Positions 44,301-47,300 of a DNA stretch of 64,000 nt are shown piece after piece. The translations under genes and the position numbers were made by a program. Below the pieces are notes generated by a model that was not told the origin of the DNA, did no database searches, and worked only from the letters and a program-made list of their open reading frames with translations. How positions within the stretch are numbered: position 1 is the first letter of the stretch; each line of letters opens with the position of its first letter. The DNA comes from Chrysomallon squamiferum (taxonomy: Eukaryota; Animalia; Mollusca). Where the stretch lies: positions 39,804,001-39,868,000 of the forward strand of contig CM022670.1 of NCBI GenBank assembly GCA_012295275.1, read 5' to 3'.

Positions 44301-47300
44301 ATTTAGGTTTATACTGAAAATTTGTCCAATATTTTAAAACTCTTATCTTCAATAAATTTATTTCATATTTTTTAATAATTCAAAATATATATATATATAT
44401 TTTTTTTTATATAATTTGCATTAATATGAAGTACATTGTGATGGCAGTCTGGAATTATTTGATTTTTTTAAATGTGAAGAGTGCCAACTTTCTTTTTTGC
44501 ATTTGTTTGTTATAAAGTAATGCATTTAAGTAAAGAAATATTATGGATTAATGAAATAATTGTTAAAAAACTCAATACAGATTATTATTTTTTCTAAATA
44601 GTAAGCTGACTATATTTTACTTTTTAATTTCAGAATAGTTTTACTTTTTTTGCAACTTATAATCAGAAATATATAACAAAAATTTAAATAAAAAATATTC
44701 CTTTATATTTTGACACTGAACATTCAAATAAATGTTTTTTGAGGGGCAGCAGGCAGTGAAGATGTTTTTTTTTGGTGGGTTTTTTTTTGAGAGATTATTC
44801 CAGTGTGTTATTTTGTTGTTTCTATTAAAATTAATTTGTTACATTTTTAAAACACACATTTGCATAAATAAGAAGTTCATTATGATGATAATTTGGAATT
44901 ACCATTTGATTTTTTTTAAAAACTGAAACCAATCAAGCGGCATTTTATTCTGAAAGAACTTCTTGATTAACATTTACTGAAACTAGTTTGATCATTTATT
45001 TTTTGATCTTTGAAAAATATTTAATTGTAAAGAAAGCGGAATACAATATTGAGGAATAATAAAATAACTGACTAAATTTTGAGTTTTTAAATTTTTTTAA
45101 AAGTTGGCTCATTTTCTAGTTTTTAGTTAATGCTTTGTGGATAATATTAGTTAAATTAACAAGAACTGAAATGAAACAAAAAGTATGATGATTCTTTGAC
45201 ATACATACCAGTATAAAACAAAAAATAAATATTAGTGTCTGTCATTATATATTTCACTTGCTCTTCAAAGTAGAATATTTATCTGCTTGATTCATATAAT
45301 TAATGCTATGTACTTGGTTACATTTTTTTAAAATTTACTATTTCATTAATCAGAGGTTCATTTATGATGATAATTTGGAATTACCATTTGATTAAAAAAA
45401 ACATGAAAATAATCAAGCGGCATTTAATTCTGAAAGAACCTTTTTTTAAAAAAAAAAACATTTTTCTATATTATTTTAAAAACGTTTAAGGACTGAATAA
45501 ATATATTATTAACAAAATAACTCATTTTCTAAATAGCTTTTACTTTTGCTAATATTTGTTATATTATTATAATATCTTGTTTCTGTTGTTACAGCTCAAA
45601 ATCCGTTTTGCCAACATGAAAGAAGGTGCTAAAATTGTTTCCTCAAAAGCTTTTTGTCCTCTGAATTTCCGTATCACTGACAGGAATCTTAGTGGTAAGT
45701 ATAAAGAAATAAAATAAGAATTCCTCAGAGTAATAACAAACTGCTTGGTTGTTAACAAAATGTAATAGTCATAGTGCCATTGAAAGTGAAGGGAGGTAAC
45801 TGTCTTTGGTTTGAAAGAAAATAAAAAATAATACAGTATTTTATTTTTTTGTTTTTACTGAATTGAATTGTCTGAATTAAAGATTTTTATAATTAAATGA
45901 ATTGATTTAAAAGAAAAAATTTAATTTTAAACGGGGAGAAAACTGTTAATATCTTTGTTTTTTAAGTCAGGAAATTTTTTTAATATTTAAAAATGTTTAA
46001 TATGAAAAATTTATCTTCAGCCATTGTTTAAAAATATTTCACGTTTAAATGTAATAATTTTGTGAAATCATAAAAATAATAATATAAGATTTTGTAATAA
46101 TTAAGTTCACTTTGGGTGGTAATGTTATTTTACAATTTTTAAAAAAAAAAAAATAATACGACTTTTTAATGTTTTTTATCTATATAGTTTTTATTTTAAT
46201 TTAAAAAATAAAATAAATTCGGATATTTTGTTACTGGTTAATCAGCAAACTAGTGGATGTTTTCCAGATATTACCTCCATTATACATGTTTCTGTGCTGT
46301 CCCCATTACGAGGTGCTGTGTCTTGGACTGGCAAACCAGTCACTTTCTACATTCACACTCTAGACAGAAGTCTGGTGAGTAGAGGCATTTGCAGTTGCCT
46401 CCCTTGACAGGTGGCGCACCAGACGGGCACATAACAGGCTACTAACATTTTCCTTACTAACTCCTTCTCTCTTGTCAAGAGATTTGTTTTGCTGCAGTTT
46501 TGTTTCTGTTTTATTGAAAATCTGTACATTACCTTCAAGAAACATATTTAACTTGATCACAATAATAAATAATAAGAATAAGAAGAACTGTTTTAATACG
46601 CTGTTTTAATATTTGTACTTTAATTGCTTATTTATAACAAGAGAAAATAATATTTTCTTTATTATTAAAAACATGAATATTATTTTCTTTATTGTTAAAA
46701 ACAGACAGCAACAGTGACAAAAACTAATTTAAAAGAGATGTTAGTTGACGTACAGGTTTTTAAATGAAACAGAAACAAACTGCAGACTATCTGCACAGTC
46801 TGATAATCTAGGTGGACGTGTTTTAGTAATCGGGGTTTAATTGGCTGTTGTTTGTAACAAGTGTTTGTGCTATTGCAGATATTGGGACAATCATGCATGT
46901 CACAGAACTGTCGCCTCTCTGTGGTGCTGTTTCCTGGACGGGCAAACCTTTCACCTACTATGTTCACACAATTGATAGAACATTGGTGAGTAACAGGCAA
47001 AGAGATCTGTATAGCCATTTCAGTACTTTTTTTTTTTTTTCTAATTTCGTCCCCACATTTTTTGGCCATAGCATTAATTTTATTTCACATTTTTGGGGCT
47101 GCTTATTAATTTTTAAAAATTTTATTTATTTATTTATTTATTTATTTATTTATTTATTTATTATTATTATTATTATTATTATTATTATTTTTTTTTTTTT
47201 TTGTCCTCAGATATTTTTATTTTTTTATTTTTTTTTATCTCTGATTCTGCATTTCTGAAGGCAAAAAAATAAAAGAAATTAGGAAAATTATTTGTAGCAG

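Follow-up and report, generated by a model that had tools for sequence, protein, structure and literature searches.

Does the DOT1L gene of the mollusc Chrysomallon squamiferum hold two interchangeable versions of one exon of its catalytic domain, and what would an exchange do to the enzyme? DOT1L is the writer of H3K79 methylation and a drug target. An initial annotation of a 64,000-nt stretch of C. squamiferum DNA, here called the window, had described two homologous exons in this gene, which we refer to as A and B.

The exon pair and its use

The coordinates, acceptors, GTGAGT donors, 107-nt length and both translations given for the two exons were reproduced. The relevant features of the window are the following.

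29386..61552, + strand: DOT1L gene coding span, starting at the first ATG and closing with the stop codon of the final long frame; 3' end approximate
45595..45694, + strand: constitutive upstream exon, ending at human S285, with a phase-1 donor common to A and B
46268..46374, + strand: exon A, 107 nt, human DOT1L 286–321; R300, V310; lineage-specific T288, S289, I291, V295 and F312
46879..46985, + strand: exon B, 107 nt, human DOT1L 286–321; C300, F310; the spliced form seen in C. squamiferum
48031..48072, + strand: constitutive downstream exon, with the ubiquitin-binding helix that carries the L322 and F326 positions; site of the premature stops of the products with both exons or neither

The gene span was derived from a tblastn search of the window with the DOT1L of Gigantopelta aegis (P0003), an exon model that reaches 49951 and an open reading frame ending at 61552. 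Among the relatives listed, G. aegis has the nearest DOT1L (91% on one exon, with the first 25 residues identical). Both exons have AG acceptors, GTGAGT donors, equal phase and open frames. They are identical at 73 of 107 nucleotides, and their 36 codons comprise 11 identical ones, 14 synonymous differences and 11 non-synonymous differences. As had been proposed, the peptides match human DOT1L residues 286–321 in the PDB (E=4e-14 for B and E=1e-10 for A). The Pfam cut-off for DOT1 (PF08123) is exceeded by exon A, exon B and both G. aegis isoforms, and a DOT1 domain with the motif VIII sequence VSWT is present in the A and B versions. The central motif, earlier called invariant, is unchanged between the two copies of the window; across species its positions 300 and 307–309 vary.

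A 16-exon gene model, running from the ATG at 29386 to 49951, reads through 449 codons without a stop whichever of the two exons is used. Inclusion of both exons leads to a stop at 48053 and skipping of both to a stop at 48033, which bears out the predicted frame shift. Both stops lie far upstream of the last junction, so nonsense-mediated decay of these products is expected. In humans, a length not divisible by three is found in 60% of mutually exclusive clusters (Hatje et al. 2017, PMC5740500). Like the tandem mutually exclusive exons described elsewhere (PMC5740500, PMC9741552; ATE1 7a/7b, PMC7797038), A and B are homologous, equal in length and phase, used one at a time and ancient, and they keep the core residues. 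What differs here is that the gene encodes a chromatin methyltransferase and that the swapped part is a substrate-engaging loop. Human DOT1L (KMT4, PF08123) has an orthologous domain that shares VSWT, I290 and R319, with exon limits, known from repair templates, that also fall at 286 and 321 (10.1101/544981).

RNA contigs from four of the ten runs that cover part of this region, namely X1 and X3 from C. squamiferum, X5, and X9 from a related organism, were aligned to 45500–47005; with the alignment region ending at 47005, junctions into the exon at 48031 were read from loose contig ends. The sole splice joint in X1, X3 and X5 was 45694>46879, which leads into exon B, and exon B continues into the 48031 exon via loose ends in X1 and X5. 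Spliced exon A was not seen in the assembled contigs of these three runs, which drop rare forms. Exon A itself lies in X1 and X3 on contigs at depth 4–5 that run into the intron on both sides. The junction check proposed for RNA therefore found the B joint in both C. squamiferum runs and an exon A joint in neither.

The relative X9 gave a different picture. Here A and B each occupy a contig of 160 nt, with the match at 25–132 and depths of 6.4 (A) and 12.5 (B). The values 160 and 25 are exactly those predicted, from the shared prefix and suffix of the exons, for the two paths of a k=31 bubble that share their flanks, and the loose end before B is the end of the upstream exon. We infer from this geometry that A and B are the two arms of one splice bubble, including the joins of A. 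Exon A of X9 has seven differences from that of the window, and the four listed are all synonymous. No A>B joint occurred in X1, X3, X5 or X9, where contigs cannot show absence; a single automatic gene model of Pinctada joins both exons in tandem.

Isoform pairs in relatives point the same way. When same-species, equal-length protein pairs were chosen from automatic annotations for carrying different versions, 11 of 11 differed only within the exon, by 7–14 residues each; two cross-species pairs, which also differ elsewhere, were left out of the count. The species are G. aegis, Haliotis asinina, H. rubra, Argopecten, Mizuhopecten, Pecten, Saccostrea, Mercenaria, Mya, Lineus and Tubulanus, and thus gastropods, bivalves and two nemerteans. 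H. rufescens, Mytilus galloprovincialis and M. edulis have both versions as well. The proteins listed for 15 named species include the two classes, with Pinctada represented by the one model that holds both. The spliced A of G. aegis differs from that of the window at two residues only, both conservatively. A scan of metagenome contigs yielded 72 loci, and seven of them contain both exons (L002, L004, L009, L038, L062, L066 and L067). The loci score best against lophotrochozoan references in a comparison that does not separate phyla. The A-B introns at these seven loci measure 614, 81, 144, 53, 53, 399 and ~470 nt, with the 53-nt introns in L038 and L062.

The isoform pairs, the spliced A of G. 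aegis isoform X2 and the tandem pairs at 7 of the 72 loci support the conservation of exon A in relatives. There, the isoform pairs and the X9 bubble also uphold the mutually exclusive use that had been claimed; for C. squamiferum, runs X1 and X3 leave the splicing of A unseen. We regard it as almost certain that the pair is real and used in a mutually exclusive manner in relatives, and exon A is very probably used in C. squamiferum as well.

Single-copy arrangements were observed too. A group of 35 near-identical loci has the V310 exon only (L001, L005–L007, L010–L012, L014–L033, L035–L037, L039, L042, L045, L063 and L064), and in 18 of the 18 checked the next exon follows without a B between. 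This group carries C or S at position 300, residues typical of B. Locus L018 has one intact exon and, immediately upstream of it (2402–2440), a partial copy of 13 codons from the exon middle, preceded by a stop; L021 gave a similar hit. This partial copy is a remnant of a local duplication. Loci L058–L061 have one V310 version with no intron before the exon, and in L065 a B-like DOT1L sequence without introns has L at 310. Among the listed proteins, Patella, Biomphalaria, Babylonia, Littorina and Bradybaena have B only, which may reflect loss or annotation. Copy losses look common. An unnamed protein of 757 residues (P0383) contains two complete DOT1 catalytic domains in tandem; it either arose by fusion of tandem paralogues or is an artefact of the gene model.

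Polarity and origin of the two copies

Comparison with other animals bears on which copy has changed. Among 81 other invertebrate or unnamed hits, all have V at 310 and 77 have K or R at 300. V310 is also found in all 82 mostly vertebrate hits that cover the site (31 more do not cover it), and F310 is absent from 163 of 163 outgroup proteins that cover it. In a set of 40 rows (12 A, 17 B and 11 outgroup), R300 occurs in 12 of 12 A rows versus 1 of 17 B rows, and I290, S304, W305, T306 and R319 do not vary. Conserved differences between the classes lie at 310 (V in A, F in B), at 300 (basic versus mostly C, S, T or P) and at 314 (V or I in B). Residue 300 is not a strict marker, since C or S occurs in the A copies of L004 and of the A-only group, and R in Tubulanus B.

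Because other animals carry V310 and a basic residue at 300, B appears to be the derived copy at the deeply conserved positions, and A appears to keep the general animal residues R300 and V310. The polarity assumed earlier is thereby reversed, as the copy that differs from other animals at 300, 310 and 314 is B and not A. Gastropod A seems to have changed later, at 288, 289, 291, 295 and 312. Human DOT1L and the other non-lophotrochozoan proteins seen have one loop version (K300, V310), to which lophotrochozoans add the F310 version. The A loop, with its basic 300 and V310, would thus be the ancestral animal form, and B, with F310, a mostly non-basic 300 and V or I at 314, an innovation that would be the dominant form in C. 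squamiferum.

The order of the copies is fixed, with V or I at 310 in the first and F310 in the second, in 11 of 11 known cases (the window, the seven loci, Pinctada and the unnamed read-through ORFs P0356 and P0357). This order suggests one ancient lophotrochozoan duplication. Molluscs, nemerteans and annelids split more than 500 million years ago. Donor B has the sequence GTGAGTA in all seven aligned pairs (window 46986–46992, L002, L004, L009, L038, L062 and L066), and donor A varies.

In a protein tree whose classes were set by residue 310, and which left out duplicates, near-duplicates, P0357 and all loci, the B rows form one clade (96/95) that includes Capitella and both nemerteans. The single model of Capitella is of the B type. 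A sister relationship of window A and window B was rejected in this tree (p-AU 0.003); a nemertean-only grouping (p 0.09) and a mollusc-only grouping (0.085) were not. A DNA tree of 14 rows, with classes assigned by genomic order and codon 310 dropped, was unresolved. Within-species pairings on the DNA tree, tested for four of the seven pairs, were rejected in L004 and L009 and not in the window or L002.

The pairs of molluscs, nemerteans and other lophotrochozoans could instead stem from several independent duplications followed by convergent V310F changes, a matter of history and not of function. That the trees do not reject group-specific duplications leaves room for such a course, and convergent tandem exon events have been described as common (PMC9741552). 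It would, however, have to produce the same copy order 11 times in 11, a B clade with 96/95 support, the same donor B in all seven aligned pairs and a B-type single model in Capitella, and we consider it improbable. A single ancient lophotrochozoan duplication is the simplest reading and a likely one.

The intron between A and B

Four elements were predicted or found in the A-B intron of the window and at its border with exon A.

46370..46424, + strand: predicted hairpin that pairs donor A (RNA folding)
46440..46461, + strand: two TACTAAC elements, 15 nt apart, a candidate Quaking/STAR-type site or distal branch point
46492..46527, + strand: 5' arm of a predicted long stem in the A-B intron (RNA folding)
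46750..46785, + strand: 3' arm of the predicted long stem (RNA folding)

The 504-nt intron is predicted to fold well below dinucleotide shuffles, with a z of -4.0 for 46360–46890; in a comparison with other loci the A-B intron of the window had a z of -5.0. The long stem loops out ~220 nt, and the TACTAAC pair lies between this stem and the donor-A hairpin. A duplex as stable was found in 1 of 17 other intronic segments. The donor-A hairpin has a z of -2.5 in the window and -2.4 in L004 and is weak or absent in the other five loci; the fold of the whole A-B intron reaches z values up to +0.8 in other loci, so that a strong fold is not general. A search of Rfam over 45600–47000 gave nothing near the gathering score.

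Allelic differences are scarce in this region. Exon A and the structured intron together show one allelic event in 293 nt versus 8.7 expected in X1 (P ~0.002), on two contigs under depth 5 and against an AT-rich baseline. The count merged seven adjacent differences at 46135–46145 and two at 46561–46562; without merging, P is 4e-5. The single allelic change in the stem, at 46764, keeps the pairing as U-G, and the donor-A hairpin has no allelic differences in one low-depth X1 contig.

The two TACTAAC elements resemble the tandem ACUAAC sites of Quaking and ASD-2 (PMC13004596, PMC3875643) in being paired, 15 nt apart, downstream of A and upstream of B. In muscle, Quaking sites downstream of an exon favor its inclusion and upstream sites favor skipping (PMC13004596, PMC3875643). 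The + strand of the window contains five TACTAAC in all, two of them in the A-B intron. Unlike in the Quaking/ASD-2 systems, the motif pair is absent from the other A-B introns, with no ACTAAY in 6 of 6 from other animals. Control of a Quaking type may thus be a local possibility for C. squamiferum.

Steric exclusion is described for branch points less than 50 nt from the donor (PMC5740500). In the window, the TACTAAC branch adenosines lie at +71 and +86 from donor A, and an ordinary motif lies 41 nt before acceptor B, so that the linear distances exceed this limit; the 53-nt introns of L038 and L062 would fall within it. Other introns seen in L004 and L038 are several hundred bases or more. 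The predicted stems of the window are nested, in contrast to the competing RNA pairings of ATE1 (PMC7797038), and do not form a docking/selector arrangement of the Dscam/ATE1 type. The frame shift is common to every pair seen. We propose that exclusion is backed by nonsense-mediated decay in all lineages, and that very short A-B introns of 53 nt would add to it in some. In C. squamiferum, RNA structure may bury donor A, which would make A a minor, probably tissue-restricted form.

Exon A might alternatively be used in relatives and be silent or decaying in C. squamiferum itself. The B-only junctions of X1 and X3 fit such a state, as do the predicted pairing of donor A and the position of window A on one of the longer A-class branches of the protein tree. 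A decaying exon would not be expected to keep an open frame and canonical splice sites, to differ from the spliced A of G. aegis by just two conservative residues, or to show no allelic differences in 172 nt where 5.1 are expected. Moreover, contigs drop rare forms, and only two of four runs of the same study were covered. We consider a silent exon A very improbable.

Other features of the window were noted beside the pair. The introns of DOT1L contain eight copies of a ~75-nt element on the + strand (starts at 38423, 39787, 41326, 44051, 44894, 45376, 47639 and 49512) and none on the minus strand. Each copy is bounded by TGATGA and CTGA and contains two constant blocks, which presumably match 18S rRNA. 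The element is likely a multi-copy box C/D snoRNA, judged by these sequence features; its best snoRNA match is snoU83B (21 bits versus a cut-off of 35), and no gathering-level match was obtained in 29000–46000. Two tandem single-frame paralogues with DnaJ and DnaJ_C domains (Hsp40) lie at 9559–10659 and 14047–15150 on the + strand. A frame with a Helicase_C match at 18847–19446, which resembles a RAD54-type exon, lies upstream of DOT1L on the opposite (-) strand.

Proposed consequences for the enzyme

The exon encodes a region in which mutations alter the activity of human DOT1L. The W305 loop is reported to be ordered only in the active complex, activity is lost in W305A, and S304 lies near H18 of H4 (10.1101/501098). 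In simulations, K300, S304, W305 and T306 are among the H4 contacts (PMC8671179). VVEL293MM, within the span of the exon, is ~3.6-fold more active (PMC5322889), Y312A inactivates the enzyme (10.1101/544981), and Y312 lines a hydrophobic pocket beside the cofactor site (PMC6943651). The product specificity of DOT1 enzymes is described as unexplained, with the motif X and motif VIII loops pointed to (Frisbie et al., PMC10951340).

An A/B swap would exchange the motif VIII substrate loop (VSWT, W305) and would thereby probably alter the rate or extent of H3K79 methylation. The bulky F310, two positions before Y312, together with the lost basic residue 300 near the H4 tail, could retune closure of the loop over H3K79. 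We found no mention of V310 of DOT1L in the literature searched, and infer the role of residue 310. An AlphaFold model of a B-type protein (P0327, from a 16-row alignment) has a mean pLDDT of 53, with ~50 in the loop, and is too poor to place this residue. Two other candidates were rejected. Residue 312, named initially among the residues that the exon covers, does not serve as the switch, as just 2 of 12 A rows have F312, those of the window and G. aegis; Min et al. are said to have found in 2003 that Y312F is tolerated in human DOT1L. The trypanosome F246/M225 difference is no equivalent of V310F, since it is at a motif VI position and leaves product specificity unchanged there (PMC10951340).

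The initial annotation had suggested different ubiquitin dependence or methylation-state output of the two enzymes and had placed part of the H2B-ubiquitin interface in the exon. I290 and R319 are indeed encoded there; L284, L322 and F326, which with I290 grip ubiquitin (10.1101/501098), sit in the neighboring exons. That the isoforms would differ mainly in their dependence on H2B ubiquitin draws on the contact of I290 with ubiquitin L73 and the lowered stimulation of I290A (10.1101/501098), and on changes next to I290, at 288, 289 and 291 in gastropod A and to A289 in most bivalve A copies. R319 is also among the ubiquitin contacts in simulations (PMC8671179). The suggestion is weakened by the invariance of I290 and R319 in all 40 rows and by the deeply conserved class differences, which occur instead within the W305 loop or beyond it, at positions 300, 310 and 314. 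We therefore hold it to be unlikely, and the ubiquitin grip would probably be unchanged by the swap. Because the ubiquitin contacts are common to both versions and the conserved differences flank W305, tuning of the rate or of the methylation state is more probable than altered ubiquitin dependence.

It is also conceivable that the pair is real and ancient but that the two enzymes are nearly equivalent, the pair being kept by split expression or by control at the mRNA level through frameshift decay. Lineages with only A, or with only B annotated, do exist, the catalytic motif residues S304, W305 and T306 are common to both, and the products with both exons or neither stop early. Near-equivalence agrees poorly with the lasting, class-specific change to F310, which is always in the second copy (11 of 11) and absent from all 163 outgroup proteins, and with the position of this change in a loop where mutations alter activity; we judge it rather unlikely. 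On the strength of these sequence comparisons, we moderately favor the reading that the A/B swap tunes catalysis through the W305 loop. A more specific proposal, which we offer tentatively and as the doubtful one of the two, is that two H3K79 writers from one gene have differed in their product ceilings since before the split of molluscs, nemerteans and annelids, the F310 and the V310/R300 loops giving different me1, me2 and me3 output, with a tissue switch by splicing.

No DOT1L exon pair was found in the literature on DOT1L splicing, mollusc H3K79 or lophotrochozoan exclusive exons, a body of mostly titles and abstract openings from which subscription journals were largely missing, and neither of two surveys of mutually exclusive exons names DOT1L in its main text (PMC5740500, PMC9741552). 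Within that literature the claim that no such switch has been described for DOT1L stands. The mechanism class, tandem mutually exclusive exons, is known; the location in the substrate loop of DOT1L is an unusual one. The A and B isoforms lie unremarked in automatic annotations, which many surveys cut to the longest isoform. A survey of annelid chromatin, which found marked H3K79 differences between two annelids, used the longest isoform only (PMC12153100).

A parallel exists with Trypanosoma brucei, where DOT1A and DOT1B are likewise two DOT1 catalytic variants in one organism (PMC10951340). Those enzymes differ in substrate preference and product, whereas the variants described here are known from sequence. 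They are also encoded by two genes that differ in motifs IV, VI and X and do not have the ubiquitin helix, whereas here one gene swaps motif VIII and its flanks (PMC10951340). The exon pair is a natural experiment on the loop put forward as a determinant of DOT1 product specificity, with two versions, 7–14 residues apart, in an otherwise identical protein in three phyla. If the two product ceilings are true, the pair would correspond, within a single gene, to the DOT1A and DOT1B of trypanosomes. Should the outputs prove different, a histone mark could be reset through splicing in what is the largest group of animals outside the model species.
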